This document shows positions 1 through 5,768 of a DNA stretch of 5,768 nucleotides, piece by piece (the stretch's first letter is position 1; each line of letters begins with the position of its first letter). The notes under the pieces were generated by a model that did no database searches, had not been told where the DNA came from, and saw only the letters and a list, made by a program, of their open reading frames with translations. The stretch is from a virus. The stretch is from positions 1-5,768 of the IMG/VR virus record IMGVR_UViG_3300045988_016372. One strand, 5' to 3'. The translations under genes were made by a program, and so were the position numbers.

Positions 1-1526
1 ATGAGGAAGGTAAAGCAGTAACAATAGAAGACAGTACACACCTTACATACAGCAGCAGTAGTATAGTAGCATATCTCGGAAAAAGAAGCGGGGCGGCAAT
101 ATATTCAGACAAAATAATAATAAATAATGCAGTACCATGGTTAGCATACTTGGATATATTTAAAAATTACTATGCAAACAAACAAGAAGACAACTACTAC
201 TGGATAGGCAAGTTCGAAAATGTATATAAAGTAGAAGATACCAACATAGTCTATGCGACTATAACAGGAGAACCATCAATAACATCAGGATATTTCCTAA
301 TAAAAAATGCAAATATAGACATAGTAGACTATACAACTGTAAAATACACAAGAAACGGTATCACAAAAGAATATGAACCAACATATTTAAAAGCACACTT
401 TACTATTAGTCAATCAGGTCCCGATCTAAAATACACAAGAAAAAATGACGGAAGTGTAATATATGGAAAACTAAGCGGATTCGCAATAGATAAAAGAAAA
501 AATTCAATAGACAATGCAAAATTAACGGAATTAGATACACTACGAGAAAAGATACTTGCGGCGGGCAAAACACAATTTGTTATTAACAAAACAACAAATA
601 AATACTTCGCAAACGTACTAGGACAAAACAACAACAAGTGGAATCTCAAAGAAGCAGGTTGCGGGTTAATCTTGAAAACATACCAAAGTGATATTTTTAA
701 CAACTGGGTTAAATCAGAATGGATAAGTGGAGAAAACGGAATCAGTGCAATAACGGCAATCAGCACAGCGGGGGATAAATTTACAATAGACCAGCTAAAC
801 CTGTCGAAAAAAGTGTACGACATGTTAAACAGAATTGCAGTAAGCGGAGGCACATATCAAGACTGGGTAGAAACAGTGTATACATCTGAATGGAACATGC
901 ACACGGAAACACCTATGTACGAGGGTGGACTATCAAGTGAAATTGAATTCCAAGAGGTAGTGAGTAACTCAGCAACAAACGATGAACCGCTAGGAACATT
1001 AGCAGGTAGAGGTATCAATACCATGAAAAAGGGCGGAAAGTTGCACATCAAGGTGACAGAACCTAGTTACATCATGGGAATAGTAAGTATAACACCTCGA
1101 GTAGATTATTGTCAAGGGAATGATTTCGACATTTACTTCACGACACTAAATGATCTGCACAAACCAGCACTAGATGGTATAGGTTATCAGGACTTATTAA
1201 CGTGTAAAGTAGCAGGGTGGACACCATATACAGCCGCATACGGGAAAACGGTGGCATGGATAGACTACATGACAAATTTTAATAAAACATACGGAACATT
1301 CGCAGAAAATGGAAATGAGGCATTCATGGTACTTAACAGAATCTTCGAGCCAAAAAATGGAGAATTCAAACAAAATGAAATAGATAACACAAGTTATATA
1401 GACCCAAGTAAATACAACTACATATTCGCAGAAACATCAGCAGAATCACAGAATTTTTGGGTACAAATAGGATTCGGAATCGAGGCTAGAAGAGTTATGT
1501 CGGCAAAACAAATACCAAATTTATAA
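1..1526 (+). CDS. VP1: Major capsid protein (Microviridae F/VP1 family), 3' portion. The 5' portion is at 5340-5768 and joins here across the circular junction.
   Basis: Frame 0 (first full codon at 3) is open from the window edge to the TAA at 1524-1526 and has no start of its own. The same frame is open from ATG 5340 to the window end, and 5692-5768 duplicates 1-77, so the two pieces are one 1878-nt gene (625 aa). The N-terminal piece carries the capsid signatures LPGDTF and IDIFTAPFRLYN (compare phiX174 F ...VDIFTFYVPHRH...). The ORF track entry 150..1526 only reflects an internal TTG. Confidence 0.92.
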   Translation, partial: EEGKAVTIEDSTHLTYSSSSIVAYLGKRSGAAIYSDKIIINNAVPWLAYLDIFKNYYANKQEDNYYWIGKFENVYKVEDTNIVYATITGEPSITSGYFLIKNANIDIVDYTTVKYTRNGITKEYEPTYLKAHFTISQSGPDLKYTRKNDGSVIYGKLSGFAIDKRKNSIDNAKLTELDTLREKILAAGKTQFVINKTTNKYFANVLGQNNNKWNLKEAGCGLILKTYQSDIFNNWVKSEWISGENGISAITAISTAGDKFTIDQLNLSKKVYDMLNRIAVSGGTYQDWVETVYTSEWNMHTETPMYEGGLSSEIEFQEVVSNSATNDEPLGTLAGRGINTMKKGGKLHIKVTEPSYIMGIVSITPRVDYCQGNDFDIYFTTLNDLHKPALDGIGYQDLLTCKVAGWTPYTAAYGKTVAWIDYMTNFNKTYGTFAENGNEAFMVLNRIFEPKNGEFKQNEIDNTSYIDPSKYNYIFAETSAESQNFWVQIGFGIEARRVMSAKQIPNL

Positions 1527-1536
1527 CCAATACGAT

Positions 1537-1893
1537 ATGAAAAGAAAAAAATATATACCAACATTCATGGGATCGGTAGAATCATTCGAGGGTGAAGCCA
1601 TCGAAAAAAAAGTATCGAGACTAATTGAAAATAATGAACCGATCACGGACGGAGCACCGATAATTTTTACAGAAAAAAAGGACGGAGTATTACCTCAATA
1701 CGACATCAGGACGGACAAATGGGATATAGCCCAATCGGCTATGGACTTAGCCAACGCAAGTAAAATAGCGAAGAGCAGAGGTTTGAAAAAACCTGAAGAA
1801 CCAAAACAGAGTACAGGACAACAGCAGAGTACAGGACAACAGCAGAGTACAGGACAACAGCAGAATACAGGACAACAGCAGAGTACAGAATAG
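1537..1893 (+). CDS. 118-aa protein with a basic N-terminus (MKRKKY) and a Q/S/T/G-rich repetitive C-terminal tail. Possible internal scaffolding (VP3-like) protein, function unconfirmed.
   Basis: ATG at 1537 lies 10 nt after the VP1 stop, on the same strand as all other genes, and the ORF ends with TAG at 1891-1893. The central segment PIIFTEKKDGVLPQYDIRTDKWDIAQSAMD resembles, from memory only, the conserved core of gokushovirus scaffold proteins. No search was run. Confidence 0.75.
   Translation: MKRKKYIPTFMGSVESFEGEAIEKKVSRLIENNEPITDGAPIIFTEKKDGVLPQYDIRTDKWDIAQSAMDLANASKIAKSRGLKKPEEPKQSTGQQQSTGQQQSTGQQQNTGQQQSTE
1807..1890 (+). repeat. In-frame 18-bp tandem repeat cagagtacaggacaacag x4.7, encoding (QSTGQQ)n at the C-terminus of the 118-aa protein.
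   Basis: Copies at 1807-1824, 1825-1842 and 1843-1860 are identical. The copy at 1861-1878 has one G>A change (S>N). A partial copy spans 1879-1890 before the stop. Confidence 0.97.
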
Positions 1894-1913
1894 CGGCAAA
1901 GCACGTATGAGTA

Positions 1914-1937
1914 TAAGGGACTTTTCGGAGTCCCTTA
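1914..1937 (+). promoter_or_regulatory. Perfect 9-bp stem-loop (taagggact / tttcgg / agtccctta), 20 nt downstream of the 118-aa gene stop. No U-tract follows.
   Basis: The inverted repeat was verified base by base. It is followed by cttctaacg rather than a T-run, so it is not a classic intrinsic terminator. Possible partial terminator, RNA-stability element or processing site setting the 118-aa/VP2 expression ratio. Confidence 0.45.
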
Positions 1938-1949
1938 CTTCTAACGAAT

Positions 1950-1965
1950 CACACGGGTACGTGTG
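1950..1965 (+). promoter_or_regulatory. Second short stem-loop (cacacg / ggta / cgtgtg) in the 118-aa-to-VP2 intergenic region.
   Basis: 6-bp perfect inverted repeat with a 4-nt loop, centred on a GTAC palindrome. It sits 50 nt upstream of the VP2 start in an A-rich leader. Confidence 0.35.
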
Positions 1966-2016
1966 TACTCTTATATATGAACTAAGTTATCAACGCTTTT
2001 AAAAAAAGCTACGAAA

Positions 2017-3063
2017 ATGGGAATCGGTAAAGAAATAGGAAGTGCAGCCCTAGGAGGGCTGACAGGTGGAGTTGGAGGTCTAGTATCAGGAGCAATCGGA
2101 GGGCTAGGATCACTAATGGGCATCGGCAGGCGAAAAGAGAAAAAAGCCCGAGAAGCCGAAGAAAGGGAGCATCAAAGACAGCTGGAATACATGGGGCTAC
2201 AAGCTCAGTATAACAAGGATCAAGCGAAATACTCCACAGAACTCAGCAAGGAAATGTGGGACTATACCAACTATGAAAATCAAAAAAAACATCTGGAAGC
2301 GGCAGGACTGAATCCAGCACTACTGTACGGTAGCGGTGGCGGTGGCGGTGGAAGTGCAGCAGGCGGCGGAAGTGCAGCAGGCGTAGGGCTGCCATCATCA
2401 ACAGGAGTAGGAATGGGCATCCAGTGGGAACAAATGGAAGCCCAAAAAGAGCTGGCTAAGGCAGAGGCAGCAAAGACTAACGCAGAGGCAGCGAAGCTGA
2501 TAACGACAGACACCGAGAACGTGAAGTCAGAAACAGAAAAAAACAAACAAGAAATCAAAGAATCCAAGAAGAGAATAGAACACCTAACCAGTCAGATTCA
2601 TAAGACTAATGAAGAAAGTAAGGGGCTGGAATTTAACAACTATCTGAACGACCTAAGAAAAGGCATCAAGCTGCATGGCGAGGTAAACGGAAAGACAGTA
2701 TGGACTAAGGGATTTGATGAAATTTTCAAGGAAAATGAGCTACAAAGAATGTTAGCAGATTACGGAATCTCACAAAAAGAATATCAAGAGGCAAAAAATG
2801 ACAAGGAGATAGCTATGAAGCTATCTGATGCTCTCGACGAGATTGCAAATGGAAAGATAGCAGTATTCGGCAAGATGGTAGAAGAAGCCAAACAGGCTAA
2901 GAACGAAACAGCCATTCAAAAATGGCAATTCGAACAGGACAAGGCACTCAGCGACCTGATCAATGAGCTAGGAGGTGAAGGAAAATACGGAAAATTACTA
3001 ACATCAATAATAAACGCAATATTCAACAAATGGAGCGGTTACGGAGGAAAGAAAGGAAAATAA
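2017..3063 (+). CDS. VP2: Minor capsid / DNA-pilot protein (Microviridae VP2 / H-like).
   Basis: 348-aa ORF with the A-rich leader aaaaaaagctacgaaaATG. The N-terminus is glycine-zipper-like and hydrophobic (GGLTGGVGGLVSGAIGGLGSLMG). The conserved VP2 block WDYTNYENQKKHLEAAGLNPALLYG is present, followed by a poly-Gly linker and a roughly 150-aa charged heptad-like (coiled-coil) region, consistent with a pilot protein forming a DNA-translocation tube. Confidence 0.85.
   Translation: MGIGKEIGSAALGGLTGGVGGLVSGAIGGLGSLMGIGRRKEKKAREAEEREHQRQLEYMGLQAQYNKDQAKYSTELSKEMWDYTNYENQKKHLEAAGLNPALLYGSGGGGGGSAAGGGSAAGVGLPSSTGVGMGIQWEQMEAQKELAKAEAAKTNAEAAKLITTDTENVKSETEKNKQEIKESKKRIEHLTSQIHKTNEESKGLEFNNYLNDLRKGIKLHGEVNGKTVWTKGFDEIFKENELQRMLADYGISQKEYQEAKNDKEIAMKLSDALDEIANGKIAVFGKMVEEAKQAKNETAIQKWQFEQDKALSDLINELGGEGKYGKLLTSIINAIFNKWSGYGGKKGK
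2335..2385 (+). repeat. Composite microsatellite inside VP2: (ggtggc)2-ggtgga followed by an imperfect 18-bp tandem duplication ggaagtgcagcaggcg(gc/ta), encoding GSGGGGGGSAAGGGSAAGVG.
   Basis: Direct inspection: copies at 2350-2367 and 2368-2385 are 16/18 identical. Hexamer repeats precede them at 2335-2352. Confidence 0.9.
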
Positions 3064-3065
3064 TT

Positions 3066-3998
3066 ATGTGTTTATACACCAAATACATTACAAACAAAAA
3101 GTACCAGCCAAACAAGAAAAACAACTTTAGAGCGCCTATCTGCAAAGATAGGCGTTTATTATTAGTACCAGCGAAATGCGGAAGATGTATCGAATGTAGA
3201 AAGGCGAGAAAAAGGGAATGGGTAATCAGACTGAACGAGGAGATTCGGAATAATCCTGAAAAGGCTACCTTCTGGACGCTGACAATAAGTAACGAAGACT
3301 ACGAAAAATTGAAGAATGACAGCAAAAAAAAAGACAGAGATAGCATATGTAAATTAGCAGTTAAGAGAATGCTCGAGCGAATACGAAAAAAAACAAAAAA
3401 GTCTGTCAGACACTGGTTTATCACAGAACTAGGAGAGAACACAGGAAGAATACACCTACATGGTATATGCTGGGGGGATCCTGATCTAATAAAGGAAAAC
3501 TGGAAATACGGATTTGTATTTCAAGGCAATATGTGCAATGAAAAGACAGTGAATTACGTAGTGAAATACATGCTCAAAGAGAATCCAATAGAGCGAAACT
3601 ATATAGGAATTGTACTATGCAGCGCAGGGATAGGCAAAGGATATGAGCAAAGCTACAACAGCAAAAGGAATGCATATAGGGAAAACAATACCAATGAATA
3701 TTACAAATTACCTAATGGAATGGAACTACCATTACCTGAATACTATCGGAAAAAAATATACAATGAAGAGGAACGGGAGAAACTATGGATTGAGAAGCAG
3801 GAGAGGGGCTACAGATACATATGTGGCGAAAAAGTATCAATAGATGATGAAGAAGAATACAACAGTATTCTTAATTACTACCGTGAAAGAGCCAAAGAAT
3901 TATATAACGAAAATTATGATAATTGGGAGAAAGAGCGGCACAAAAGGCAACTTCAGAAACTCAAAGAATATCAGCAAGAACACAAAAGAGGCGGTTAA
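3066..3998 (+). CDS. VP4: Rolling-circle replication initiation protein (Microviridae VP4 / gpA-like HUH endonuclease).
   Basis: ATG 3066 lies 2 nt after the VP2 stop and is preceded by the purine-rich ggaggaaagaaaggaaaataatt. An in-frame ATG at 3030 would overlap VP2 by 34 nt; this is the less likely start. The N-terminal Cys cluster is CKDRRLLLVPAKCGRCIEC...REW. RCR motif I is FWTLTI (about 3270), motif II is IHLHGICWG (HLH at 3454-3462) and motif III is NYVVKYMLK with a YxxxY catalytic tyrosine pair (3555-3578). TAA stop at 3996-3998. Confidence 0.92.
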   Translation: MCLYTKYITNKKYQPNKKNNFRAPICKDRRLLLVPAKCGRCIECRKARKREWVIRLNEEIRNNPEKATFWTLTISNEDYEKLKNDSKKKDRDSICKLAVKRMLERIRKKTKKSVRHWFITELGENTGRIHLHGICWGDPDLIKENWKYGFVFQGNMCNEKTVNYVVKYMLKENPIERNYIGIVLCSAGIGKGYEQSYNSKRNAYRENNTNEYYKLPNGMELPLPEYYRKKIYNEEEREKLWIEKQERGYRYICGEKVSIDDEEEYNSILNYYRERAKELYNENYDNWEKERHKRQLQKLKEYQQEHKRGG

Positions 3999-4012
3999 TA
4001 ACCGCTTTTTTT
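3991..4012 (+). terminator. Rho-independent terminator at the end of VP4: stem gcggtt/aaccgc (loop aat) followed by a T7 run.
   Basis: gcggttaataaccgc ttttttt. The VP4 stop codon (3996-3998) lies in the stem/loop. A GC stem plus 7 consecutive T is canonical. Confidence 0.7.
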
Positions 4013-4055
4013 GTGTTGATAAGTATACAAAATCGGTTAATAAACATGTTAATAA
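3994..4055 (+). repeat. Three copies of GTTAATAA(C) at 3994-4001 (in the terminator loop), 4036-4043 and 4048-4055.
   Basis: Exact octamer matches. Two copies are 12 bp apart, immediately downstream of the rep terminator. Confidence 0.8.
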
Positions 4056-4212
4056 CTTGTGAATAAAAAAATAAATTTTTAACACTTTATTAAGATTTGA
4101 TTTATATATAGAAAAAAGATTTATATTTCAAAATTTAATAATAGAAAGTTATAAAAAGTTATGAACAGAGTTATGAACAAGATAAATAGCTATGTTTCAG
4201 GCTATTAACATG
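4045..4212. repeat. 10-bp inverted repeat pair, catgttaata (4045-4054) and tattaacatg (4203-4212), bracketing a roughly 150-nt, roughly 19%-GC segment.
   Basis: Exact reverse complement, verified by hand. A chance 10-mer inverted repeat within 160 bp is improbable. It could form a large hairpin in the packaged single strand. Confidence 0.8.
4101..4115 (+). repeat. TTTATATATAGAAAA, copy 1 of an AT-rich direct repeat (copy 2 at 4258-4270).
   Basis: Compare ttgatttatatatagaaaaaag (4096-4117) with ctgtttatatagaaaatta (4255-4273). Confidence 0.75.
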
Positions 4213-4223
4213 GTTATGAACAG
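4146..4223 (+). repeat. Iteron-like direct repeats (A)GTTATGAACA(G/A): a partial copy aagttat at 4146-4152, a tandem pair at 4157-4168 and 4169-4180, and a third copy at 4213-4223.
   Basis: Exact 11-mer gttatgaacag at 4158-4168 and 4213-4223, and gttatgaacaa at 4170-4180. The tandem pair is phased at 12 bp. The third copy directly abuts the right arm of the 10-bp inverted repeat. Confidence 0.85.
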
Positions 4224-4257
4224 TTTCAACAGGATATTATTATCATATATATTTCTG

Positions 4258-4270
4258 TTTATATAGAAAA
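4258..4270 (+). repeat. TTTATATAGAAAA, copy 2 of the AT-rich direct repeat.
   Basis: See copy 1. It lies 11 nt upstream of a perfect TATAAT hexamer. Confidence 0.75.
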
Positions 4271-4280
4271 TTATAAATAT

Positions 4281-4286
4281 TATAAT
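4281..4286 (+). promoter_or_regulatory. Perfect TATAAT hexamer 5-10 nt upstream of the GC-rich island. Candidate -10 element if the host uses sigma70-type promoters.
   Basis: The tataat string is present. The best -35 at 17-bp spacing (tttata, 4258-4263) is weak (3/6). TATAAT arises by chance in AT-rich DNA, so this is low confidence. Confidence 0.25.
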
Positions 4287-4290
4287 AATG

Positions 4291-4560
4291 GCGTTACCCC
4301 TAAAGGGGTCGGGCTTTCCGCTGTGATCCCTAACGCAGCAGCGCAAAGGACAGTACGGTTTCCATGCAACATCCATGGATCAGGAAGTAAGAGCCAGATA
4401 ATAATTTTTACGCGGGCATGGTGTCAATATCACAGGGAAGCTCGCACTCTGTGCGCCGGGATCAGGCTACATGTCACACGGCAGCACTAAGTTATCTAAG
4501 GTGCTAACGCTATCGGGGCTACGCGCCCCTATACCCCTCGTACGCAACAAAGTTGCGATT
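4291..4560 (+). other. GC-rich (about 53% GC), hairpin-dense non-coding island. Candidate complementary-strand (ssDNA to dsDNA) origin / primosome-primase entry site, or a novel structured ncRNA.
   Basis: A sharp composition step from about 19% GC (4081-4290) to about 53% GC, by my own count. No ORF of 60 aa or more on either strand. Verified local stem-loops: 4296-4309 (acccc-taaa-ggggt), 4361-4379 (tccatg-7nt-catgga), 4443-4455 (cgcac-tct-gtgcg), 4483-4505 (agcac-13nt-gtgct), 4515-4529 (ggggc-tacgc-gcccc) and 4543-4557 (cgcaac-aaa-gttgcg). Internal repeated motifs: GGATCAGG x2 (4377-4384, 4459-4466) with its complement tgatcc at 4324-4329, and CTAACGC x2 (4330-4336, 4504-4510). Confidence 0.5.
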
Positions 4561-4564
4561 ATAT

Positions 4565-4882
4565 ATGCCTACGGCAGTTTTTTTAACAAAATATATTTGT
4601 TACTTTCAGAAAAAATACAGTAACTTTAGGGCAAACAAAATTCAAGATATAAAAAGAATATACGAATTCAGCTTTATTCCAAAAGGTCTAGCTTACATGT
4701 TAAAAGACAATACAGAACGATATTGGTATCTATACATACGAAATAATGAAGAAGGTATAGTTACAGAAACAAAAGAAGGATTCTACATATACGATTATAC
4801 AAAATTAAATAATATATATGCAGGAAATAATATGCTAACACTGGCGAAAAAAATAAGAGAATTATATAATTTATTCAAATAA
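4565..4882 (+). CDS. Hypothetical Tyr-rich small protein (105 aa from ATG 4565; alternatively 61 aa from ATG 4697).
   Basis: ORF on the coding strand with A-rich codon usage like the other genes and a TAA stop at 4880-4882. Its 5' 130 nt overlap a T7 run and a promoter-like motif, so the shorter form MLKDNTERYWYLYIRNNEEGIVTETKEGFYIYDYTKLNNIYAGNNMLTLAKKIRELYNLFK may be the real product. I recognise no homology. Confidence 0.4.
   Translation: MPTAVFLTKYICYFQKKYSNFRANKIQDIKRIYEFSFIPKGLAYMLKDNTERYWYLYIRNNEEGIVTETKEGFYIYDYTKLNNIYAGNNMLTLAKKIRELYNLFK
4566..4584 (+). terminator. Weak terminator-like element: 4-bp stem tgcc/ggca followed by a T7 run (4578-4584), just downstream of the GC island.
   Basis: tgcctacggcag ttttttt. 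The stem is short, so this is low confidence. It would delimit an island transcript of about 290 nt if TATAAT 4281-4286 is a promoter. Confidence 0.25.
4592..4599 (+). promoter_or_regulatory. TATATTTG. Matches the Bacteroidetes sigmaABfr -7 promoter consensus TAnnTTTG.
   Basis: Exact consensus match. No clean TTTG -33 element was found upstream (gttttttt). It lies inside the long version of ORF 4565-4882, which would push that gene's start to ATG 4697. Confidence 0.3.
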
Positions 4883-4915
4883 TGTTCCACGTGAAAAAAC
4901 CTATTAATTAATGAT

Positions 4916-5128
4916 ATGAAAATAGAAGAAAAGTATAAAAAATTAATTCGTGAAATCACAATTGCAGTATTGTCAGCCATCCTGACATGGTTGGGAGTAA
5001 GTTGTACCAACATGCTATCTATTCAGAGAAATGTGAAAGATAGCAGCATAAGTACAGAAAACAAGACAGAAGGAAAGGTAAGTGCAGATAGCACAAGTAT
5101 TAACTTATTTAACAAAGAAAAAAAATGA
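4916..5128 (+). CDS. 70-aa small protein with a signal-peptide / lipoprotein-like N-terminus (membrane-anchored or secreted). Candidate lysis or superinfection-exclusion factor.
   Basis: MKIEEKYKKLIRE, then the hydrophobic stretch ITIAVLSAILTWLGVS followed by Cys (a lipobox-like LGVSC), then a polar S/T/K-rich tail. Its TGA stop (5126-5128) overlaps the ATG of the next ORF (ATGA), which argues for real translation. Confidence 0.6.
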   Translation: MKIEEKYKKLIREITIAVLSAILTWLGVSCTNMLSIQRNVKDSSISTENKTEGKVSADSTSINLFNKEKK

Positions 5129-5343
5129 ATGTAGAAGAATTATTCAAGATCAGACCTACTAACGAAGAACAAAATGATTTCATAATCACCGTAGGACAAC
5201 ACTTAGCAACAGAACAACATTTCAATACTAGAGAAGAAGCAGAAAAATACACAAATACACCGCAATGGGACATGATTCTAGCTATGGTAGCTGAAATGTT
5301 CCAGATTCAAACAGAAGTTGAATACAAAAAAGATAAGGAATGA
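5125..5343 (+). CDS. 72-aa acidic (Glu-rich) small protein immediately upstream of VP1, translationally coupled to it.
   Basis: ATG 5125 overlaps the upstream stop, and its own TGA (5341-5343) overlaps the VP1 ATG 5340. The leader is A-rich (gaaaaaaaATG). It is not basic, so it is not phiX174 J-like. Function unknown. Confidence 0.6.
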   Translation: MNVEELFKIRPTNEEQNDFIITVGQHLATEQHFNTREEAEKYTNTPQWDMILAMVAEMFQIQTEVEYKKDKE

Positions 5344-5768
5344 GCATATCAAAATCAATAGGAAAGAGCACCCTAGGCGGTGGTAAATCCATACAGGTTG
5401 ACCTGAAAACCTACAATAGAAGTACACACAATCTATCATACGCATGGCGAAGTAGTATGGGTGTAGGTACACTAGTACCATGCATGAAATTAGTAGGATT
5501 ACCAGGAGATACGTTTGACATTGACATAGATACTAAAGTACTGACACATCCAACAGTAGGACCACTATTCGGTTCATACAAATTACAAATTGACATATTT
5601 ACGGCTCCATTCAGACTATACAACGCAATGTTACACAACAACGCACTAAATGTAGGTCTAGATATGAGTAAAGTCAAATTACCTAAAGTTGATGAGGAAG
5701 GTAAAGCAGTAACAATAGAAGACAGTACACACCTTACATACAGCAGCAGTAGTATAGTAGCATATCTC
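5340..5768 (+). CDS. VP1: Major capsid protein VP1, 5' portion (continues at 1-1526 through the circular junction).
   Basis: ATG 5340 overlaps the TGA (5341-5343) of the upstream 72-aa ORF (ATGA), with the A-rich leader aaaaaagataaggaATG. Translation reads MSISKSIGKSTLGGGKSIQVDLKTYNRSTHNLSYAWRSSMGVGTLVPCMKLVGLPGDTFDIDIDTKVL...SYKLQIDIFTAPFRLYNAML, the typical Microviridae jelly-roll capsid N-terminus. The frame stays open to the window end. Confidence 0.9.
   Translation, partial: MSISKSIGKSTLGGGKSIQVDLKTYNRSTHNLSYAWRSSMGVGTLVPCMKLVGLPGDTFDIDIDTKVLTHPTVGPLFGSYKLQIDIFTAPFRLYNAMLHNNALNVGLDMSKVKLPKVDEEGKAVTIEDSTHLTYSSSSIVAYL
5692..5768. repeat. Terminal redundancy: exact 77-nt duplicate of positions 1-77 (circular-genome assembly overlap). 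Unit genome = 5691 nt.
   Basis: Direct string identity of 5692-5768 with 1-77. 5691 is divisible by 3, so the VP1 frame is preserved across the junction. Confidence 0.97.

Follow-up and report, generated by a model that had tools for sequence, protein, structure and literature searches.

A GC-rich intergenic island of an uncultured gut microvirus as a possible mosaic cassette containing Bacteroidota-type repeat DNA

A GC-rich island in a microvirus genome

The 5,768 nucleotides (nt) analyzed here (the window) are positions 1 to 5,768 of IMG/VR virus record IMGVR_UViG_3300045988_016372 and represent a single complete circular microvirus genome with a unit length of 5691 nt. The sole long non-coding stretch of this genome (3999-4696) contains a GC-rich island at 4291-4560, for which a sequence-only reading, made from the letters of the window, had proposed a complementary-strand origin or, alternatively, a structured RNA. 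We consider the chances about even that the island is an accessory, recombining, mosaic non-coding cassette containing host-type repeat DNA. This cassette would occupy one permissive junction of the intergenic region, between the terminator of the replication protein (Rep) gene and a downstream promoter, and its first 62 nt would be an insertion with a minimal one-unit repeat core, the remaining 214 nt being a microvirus-clade module. Judged by sequence comparison, the first part belongs to a repeat family that is common both in the chromosomes of Bacteroidota and in phages infecting them, and indifferent to orientation. At the exact junction the insert is polymorphic in length, the module is replaced in a near-identical genome, and the repeat together with a cargo is found elsewhere in L038 (related genomes and loci are referred to by such labels). 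In other microviruses inverted orientation occurs, and the homologue in L003 lies between 21-nt direct repeats.

Length polymorphism and exchange at one junction

About 25 related genomes were collected from BLAST and pattern scans, and their comparison splits the island at 4348/4349, so that the single 270-nt unit originally described gives way to a 62-nt insertion (4287-4348) and a separate module (4349-4562). The left junction of the cassette is a TATAAT box (4281-4286, + strand), and its right edge is formed by a weak hairpin, GCC-TAC-GGC, followed by a run of seven T (4567-4584, + strand); the TATAAT and the T7 run (4578-4584) are both present as claimed. In L001, L009 and L312, the counterpart of the T7 run is a different A/T hairpin followed by TTTTT. 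When the insert is measured between TATAAT and GAYAGTACGG, five different forms are found at one junction. The insert is 0 nt in 11 clade members, which read from TATAAT into GATAGTACGG uninterrupted. It is 62 nt in the window (+ strand), where the repeat copy is followed by the 10-nt tail cagcgcaaag, and also 62 nt in L313, which is a different deletion form, while it reaches 89-94 nt in L021/L303, L302 and L006 and 172 nt in L306. A Rep nick site at the junction of TATAAT and GATAG was considered and rejected, the motif not being kept in the L006-type genomes.

The module is exchanged as well. L298, of which the Rep is 95% identical to that of the window and the intergenic flanks about 97% identical, carries the first element and then a different cargo of about 100 nt, replacing 4349-4562. 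In L038, the first element and an L298-like cargo stand at another genome position, directly upstream of Rep. Presence in close relatives, on which the functional proposal had been staked, therefore holds in part only, given the 11 genomes without the first 62 nt and the swapped cargo of L298.

In a search of 8 further related microviruses, no homologue was found. GC-rich non-coding islands of unrelated sequence are present in four of the five related microviruses examined (L317, 4700-4850; L318, 3643-3840; L320, 4740-4900; L316, 4100-4220), with up to 60% GC per 100 nt and located downstream of Rep or in the gap that separates the pilot-protein gene from Rep; in L319 no GC-rich island was found. 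Words of the CGCTAC type recur in several of these unrelated islands.

The repeat copy and its family in Bacteroidota

The first part of the island is, on comparative evidence, a Bacteroidota palindromic intergenic repeat related to Flavo-1. The copy in the window (4288-4338, + strand) is a single-unit form consisting of an outer stem P1 (4291-4295, GCGTT, with 4332-4336, AACGC), a hairpin P2 (4296-4309, ACCCC-TAAA-GGGGT) and a stem P3 (4311-4316, GGGCTT, with 4325-4330, GATCCC). The covariance model R1, built on a seed of 24 repeat copies from which the clade of the window was left out, matches this copy on the + strand over the full length of the model (1-65), with 44.7 bits and an E of 3.9e-9. 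The features by which the family is recognized are present in the window copy, namely the outer stem GCGUU/AACGC, the variable hairpin P2 and the core UCGGGCUUUCC ... CAAUCCCU, and other microviruses, as well as larger phage contigs, again contain the conserved blocks GGGCGTT ... TCGGGCTTTCC ... CAATCCCTAACGC.

A chromosome scan, covering one genome per species with a pattern that held the 3' strand of P1 fixed, gave at least 120 matches. Among the matches listed, nearly all are from Bacteroidota, with several copies per genome, complete chromosomes included, and the hosts are Flavobacteriaceae, Chitinophagaceae, Sphingobacteriales and Bacteroidales, together with a few Treponema/Spirochaetales. 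The family comprises 141 distinct extracted copies of 50-180 nt, sharing the outer stem P1, a hairpin P2 of variable sequence and one or two GGGCUU...AA[GU]UCC units, with inserted hairpins being optional. In the 24-sequence seed alignment, 89% of the cells are paired, as against 30-45% in slid controls, and double-change cells number 29 compared with 9.3 in shuffles (0 of 500 shuffles reach 29). A host-derived insert, which the sequence-only reading had itself raised, is thus partly borne out: the family to which 4288-4338 belongs is represented by over 110 intergenic copies in the chromosomes of Bacteroidota.

Nearly all chromosomal copies are intergenic (112 of 116), of which 26 are co-oriented and 41 anti-oriented with respect to their genes, 16 lie between convergent and 10 between divergent genes. 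They are close to gene 3' ends, at a median of 25 nt after the gene end, and the repeat directly follows a stop codon in L004, L120 and L150; the repeat of the window is about 290 nt from the nearest stop codon. No recurrent neighbour gene was found beside the repeat; the most frequent one occurs at 8 of 120 loci, which represent orthologous neighbourhoods. The strand opposite to the R1 reading has a slight advantage in predicted stability (97 copies vs 43). The gene strand is the usual location of the repeat in microviruses, but in L055 and L168 it is on the strand opposite to all genes. Flavo-1 hits in a Flavobacterium transcriptome were sense or antisense to transcribed regions, with many in untranscribed DNA (PMC9723704). 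Because the copies are intergenic, occur in both orientations and have no recurrent neighbour, and because Flavo-1 hits are often untranscribed, the repeat behaves as DNA of the repetitive extragenic palindromic (REP) kind and not as a strand-specific RNA or ssDNA (single-stranded DNA) signal.

In its relation to Flavo-1, the family has common sequence blocks, since the GGAAAGCC units of Rfam correspond to GGCTTTCC on the R1 strand, as well as many copies per genome and a function that is not known. The range given by Rfam, Bacteroidota and some Spirochaetes, is also that of our scan. Several features are different. The Rfam model lies on the opposite strand, covers the two inner units only and lacks the outer stem P1 and the variable hairpin P2, and its 3' flank in R1 orientation is CAATCGGGGCTAAAA, whereas that of the repeat family is CAATCCCTAACGC. 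The longer members L204, L120 and L150 score 31.3, 35.1 and 28.1 bits with Rfam Flavo-1 (RF01705; Weinberg et al., 2010, PMC2864571), below the gathering threshold of 42, which no tested copy reaches; a gathering-mode scan of 16 loci gave none, and all the sub-threshold matches fall on the strand opposite to the R1 reading. The window copy has no Flavo-1 match at E<=10, either in the whole window or in 4270-4600, and has one unit, GGGCTTTCCGCTGTGATCCC, instead of the two pairing GGAAAGCC units of Flavo-1; two-unit forms of the repeat stand at the same site in L006 and L315. Since the longer members are sub-threshold and the window copy is undetected, we regard the family as Flavo-1-related and not as a curated member. 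No report of this repeat family in microvirus genomes was found in the searchable literature.

The REP/REPIN elements of Proteobacteria are mobilised by RAYT tyrosine (Y1) transposases and have a conserved 5' GTAG or CGTC tag. The Bacteroidota repeat is similar to them in being short, GC-rich, palindromic, intergenic and of high copy number, in occurring in either orientation and often just after gene ends, and in having variable stems with compensatory change. It is unlike them in its lineage, in starting with (T)GGGCGTT without a GTAG/CGTC tag, and in being a multi-stem element of 50-180 nt and not a single hairpin of 20-40 nt, and its mobility is putative. No RAYT gene was seen beside the repeat, as no protein family recurs in the neighbourhoods of the 120 loci, to which this search was confined.

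Three further observations concern the repeat family. A mini-palindrome, CCCGATAGCTATCGGGA, is nested in the hairpin loops of many chromosomal copies as a repeat within a repeat, with examples in the Flavobacteriaceae loci L174, L177, L203, L204, L212, L224, L251 and L281. In L004 (MG945282), a 1.5-kb non-coding region after Rep holds the repeat and then a long inverted repeat of about 200 nt (1314-1512), with 79% match to its own reverse complement. The sequence CTTTAGGGCAAAC (4624-4636), in the leader of the downstream open reading frames (ORFs) of the window, is 85% complementary to the P2 arm at 4293-4305, which is probably chance, the downstream site being unconserved in L298.

The clade-specific module

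The module 4349-4562 (214 nt) was found in the metagenome scan only on microvirus-size contigs, up to 10.4 kb. The sole module-bearing contig longer than a microvirus genome is L303 (an ERZ773144 contig of 10,367 nt), which is probably a concatemeric assembly and not another replicon, because its length is roughly double the unit length and its island does not differ from that of L021. Neither blastn-short on about 1 Mb of Bacteroidota loci nor model R2 on 34 loci revealed homology of the module to host DNA, L003 being the only match.

Within the module, a variable 5' sub-module (4349-4406, + strand) precedes a conserved core (4407-4562, + strand; mean column identity 91%, 17 distinct sequences). 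Most of the within-clade substitutions fall in the sub-module, of which L306 has a duplication and for which the L009/L312/L001 subclade has another sequence. The sub-module of the window forms a hairpin of TCCATG (4361-4366) with CATGGA (4374-4379), and its inner helix is kept mostly via G-U to A-U changes on the + strand. The core contains a variable loop at 4419-4437 and three + strand hairpins. Hairpin Hc (4443-4447 with 4451-4455) never varies, hairpin Ha (4515-4519 with 4525-4529) changes from GC to AU in 3 sequences, and hairpin Hb (4543-4548 with 4552-4557), which is followed by ATTATATAT, changes from AU to UA in 1 sequence. Several one-sided changes in the module keep G-U pairs on the + strand. 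The support that these hairpins receive is real but thin, with two independent compensatory events. For the candidate pairings GCGGGC (4411-4416) with GCTCGC (4440-4445) and TACGCGGG with CCCCTCGTA, only one-sided changes or breaks were seen, and an AGCAC/GTGCT helix at about 4484-4505 was rejected because the L009/L312/L001 subclade is unable to form it. Guide scaffolds of the RNA-guided dCas12f of Bacteroidota were also discarded as a candidate, since such guides adjoin their operons.

The sole distant relative of the module is in L003 (OM869668, Peromfec virus RodF7_5), where three collinear blocks, one of which is a 29-nt local model match with an E of 0.01, lie on the strand opposite to all six annotated genes. 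There, a 193-nt GC-rich module is placed between 21-nt direct repeats that are 86% identical (3519-3753), with a third partial copy, and resembles either a recombination scar or an insertion accompanied by duplication.

Composition and coding status

The jump in composition that had drawn attention to the island was reproduced, 4291-4560 having 53.0% GC compared with 18.6% in the 210 nt upstream (4081-4290) and 37.3% genome-wide. The level is not unique in the genome, as a 270-nt stretch within the pilot-protein gene reaches 53.7%. The repeated word GGATCAGG has indeed two copies, at 4377 and 4459 (0.10 expected). CTAACGC is found at 4330 and 4504 as described, and a third copy stands outside the island at 2477 (0.33 expected). 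ARAGORN found neither tRNA nor tmRNA, in agreement with the absence of a tRNA T-loop noted earlier, and the proposed Rfam scan gave zero families at E<=10 in the whole window or in 4270-4600 alone. A literature search with sequence strings returned unrelated primer matches only.

A density of hairpins beyond chance was not confirmed. The minimum free energy of the island is within the range of dinucleotide shuffles, with z values of -0.81 (+ strand) and -1.62 (- strand) for RNA folding and of -1.64 (+) and -1.77 (-) for DNA folding. Parts of the island are conserved with pair-preserving changes among the relatives, and comparative support is limited to some of the hairpins.

As to coding, the island had been described as free of ORFs on either strand. 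Small ORFs do overlap it, at 4323-4490 and 4471-4623 on the + strand and at 4197-4376 on the - strand. Its non-coding status stands, since no ORF is kept in 20 relatives and the 60 variable columns of their alignment are spread 22/21/17 over codon positions 1-3, which is not codon-like conservation. The length of the T run, 4-7 nt among relatives, would also shift any frame reading through, and a protein-coding gene is ruled out by these observations together. In L002 (MG945660), a GenBank 'hypothetical protein' (38-439) begins inside the island homologue, at the ATG equivalent to window position 4471, and runs into the next ORF because a T6 run, compared with the T7 of the window, fuses the frames; this is probably not a real gene.

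Promoter-like sequences and DnaA-box-like cluster

The intergenic region starts with a strong Rep terminator (3991-4005), followed by an AT-rich segment (19% GC) that reaches 4290. Six copies of TTATNMACA, which are one-mismatch relatives of the DnaA box TTATNCACA, are present at 4014-4222, with the three at 4014-4066 lying on the minus strand and the three at 4159-4222 on the plus strand; one of the six is a perfect TTATTCACA (4058-4066, minus strand). Genome-wide, the motif occurs 7 times vs 0.76 expected. L001, the genome of which is about 75% identical, keeps the inverted arrangement, but L004 lacks it. When folded as ssDNA, the minus-strand group of boxes pairs with the plus-strand group (z -2.24). 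This cluster would be a better-conserved candidate for replication control than the GC island, or even for a DnaA-box-hairpin minus-strand start. Three perfect DnaA boxes, TTATCCACA, were also noticed just upstream in L020 (about 6400-6650) and L027, loci linked to the window only by a chance 17-nt match.

The TATAAT at the left junction forms, together with a TTTATA 17 nt upstream (4258-4286), a 10/12 match to the sigma-70 consensus, which may not be that of the host, and it abuts the start of the island in all clade members. Shine-Dalgarno sequences are, judged by eye, generally lacking in the window, and because of this general lack and of the repeat a Bacteroidota host is likely. Bacteroidota promoters have TAnnTTTG at -7, as cited in PMC13472631, and the TATAAT at 4281-4286 does not fit this consensus. 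The only + strand TAnnTTTG in 3999-4696 is TATATTTG (4592-4599, + strand), which lies just downstream of the island and outside the cassette; genome-wide, the motif occurs 9 times vs 8.1 expected, which is not above chance. The box at 4592-4599 and the strong Rep terminator suggest that transcription starts at about 4606 and proceeds around the circle as a single unit. At the equivalent of 4592-4599, only ...ATTTG is present in some relatives.

Weighing of the alternative readings

A complementary-strand origin, of which the + strand hairpins would recruit host primase, primosome or RNA polymerase for minus-strand priming, now appears very unlikely. The island does form part of the one long stretch of non-coding DNA in an ssDNA phage, some of its hairpins are conserved with G-T/G-U pairs on the + strand, and it is like the G4 ori(c), the phiX174 primosome assembly site, the M13 ori(-) and the single-strand origins (sso) of plasmids in being a structured, non-coding and relatively GC-rich part of a rolling-circle replicon. 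Those origins are orientation-fixed on the displaced or packaged strand and kept among close relatives, whereas the island varies in both respects and is partly a chromosomal repeat that occurs in both orientations. The repeat is on the anti-gene strand in L055 and L168, and the module likewise, on the non-packaged strand, in L003. Neither part follows the replication proteins, as the first is missing in 11 clade members, the second is replaced by other cargo in L298 despite the 95% identical Rep, and L319 is without any GC-rich island. That orientation varies, that the pieces are present in some genomes and absent from others, and that the first part is of chromosomal origin are the three findings that contradict an origin in the packaged + strand. 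TAnnTTTG is found in the island on neither strand, so that a folded promoter is not possible, and TAGCGT, the hexamer similar to CS-6 of ssoA, is present only as the reverse complement of 4506-4512. The folding as ssDNA that the sequence-only reading had called for is not exceptional on the + strand (z -1.64). In the reekeekee- and roodoodoo-microviruses, intergenic hairpins with compensatory substitutions have been proposed, and not shown, to start the minus strand (PMC9865509); these are 1-2 clade-wide hairpins, in contrast to a 270-nt mosaic with parts that come and go between near-identical genomes.

The module, with or without the repeat, could also be a phage-encoded small RNA transcribed from the + strand of the replicative form, starting just after TATAAT and ending at the T run or at Hb and the AU-rich tail behind it; we consider this unlikely. 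It would explain why the sigma-70-like TATAAT abuts the island in every clade member despite diverging surroundings and why one-sided changes keep + strand G-U pairs, and an independent transcription unit would tolerate the inverted orientation in L003. Hb (4543-4557) with ATTATATAT was flagged as terminator-like, and the cargo of L298 and a block of L168 also end in a hairpin with a C-AAA-G loop and then A/T-rich sequence. Yet the most likely host is a Bacteroidota and no + strand TAnnTTTG is upstream of the island, the terminators are weak, the folding is no better than that of shuffled sequence, the covariation amounts to two events and L298 manages without the module. The discrete transcript of about 290 nt, which had been offered as the alternative to an origin, is therefore a weak candidate. 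A role in cis on double-stranded DNA (dsDNA) or transcription, as a terminator, an insulator before the promoter at 4592-4599 or a putative protein-binding site of the sort proposed for REP elements, seems very improbable indeed. Such a role would suit the chromosomal copies, with their position just after gene ends and stop codons, and the place of the island, downstream of the Rep terminator and upstream of the sole + strand TAnnTTTG box of the intergenic region, and orientation indifference fits a palindromic dsDNA or bidirectional element; but the repeat of the window is far from the nearest stop codon and the Rep gene already has its own strong terminator.

The accessory mosaic cassette is the reading we favour. 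The repeat would have come from the host or from co-resident phages, arriving by a hairpin-dependent, ssDNA-dependent or recombinational route, for which the rolling-circle genome would offer an abundant single-stranded substrate. Internal direct sub-repeats, GGGCTTTCC...CAA[GT]TCC, may drive slippage deletions and exchanges, which would account for the five length forms. The cassette would be dispensable for replication, with the essential origin functions presumably residing in the conserved AT-rich part of the intergenic region. A number of points weigh against this reading. The core 4407-4562 retains about 91% column identity in 17 genomes and about 80% in a subclade with whole genomes about 75% identical, and this conservation, the compensatory changes and the + strand G-U pairs suggest selection on a + strand fold, something superfluous for purely selfish DNA. 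Variation of P1 is under-sampled, the scan pattern having fixed its 3' strand. For the window's repeat copy, no transposase, target-site duplication or terminal inverted repeat was found, and for this reason we only infer the route of insertion. Polymorphism alone does not exclude function, because the second-strand origins of rolling-circle plasmids, which are functional, are also exchanged as cassettes.

A bolder version, in which 4349-4562 and its collinear relative in L003 would be a new mobile non-coding element or small-RNA gene moving between microviruses in either orientation, is quite unlikely in our estimation. If it were true, ssDNA phage genomes would, with the repeat, be both targets and vehicles for hairpin-forming repeat elements, and their mobilisation on ssDNA might be due to an enzyme of the HUH type, for example the Rep of the phage or a transposase of the host.

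For an uncultured gut microvirus clade, the Bacteroidota repeat inside the phage is evidence, at the level of sequence, of the host phylum. An element of the Flavo-1 type, catalogued as a small RNA motif, behaves here as orientation-independent repeat DNA, and its outer stem and hairpin are not covered by the curated model. Non-coding DNA is gained, lost and swapped at one junction of a 5.7-kb genome between genomes that are otherwise more than 90% identical, a turnover that is unexpected for viruses under tight size constraint. A GC-rich hairpin island in a microvirus should accordingly not be read as the missing minus-strand origin.

Genome context

The window is taken as a complete circular genome with an assembly overlap because of an exact terminal direct repeat of 77 nt (1-77 = 5692-5768). 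A prophage or att remnant was rejected, as the exact Rep was matched only on a 3.9-kb contig and no bacterial flank was found. All recognisable genes are on the + strand and comprise the capsid protein (from 5341 across the origin to 1526), a 118-aa ORF between the capsid and pilot proteins in gene order, the pilot protein (2017-3063), Rep (3030/3066-3998) and, from about 4697, three small ORFs. At its 3' end (1801-1890), the 118-aa ORF has an 18-nt unit, cagagtacaggacaacag, repeated in tandem about five times and encoding the peptide QSTGQQ as a repeat.

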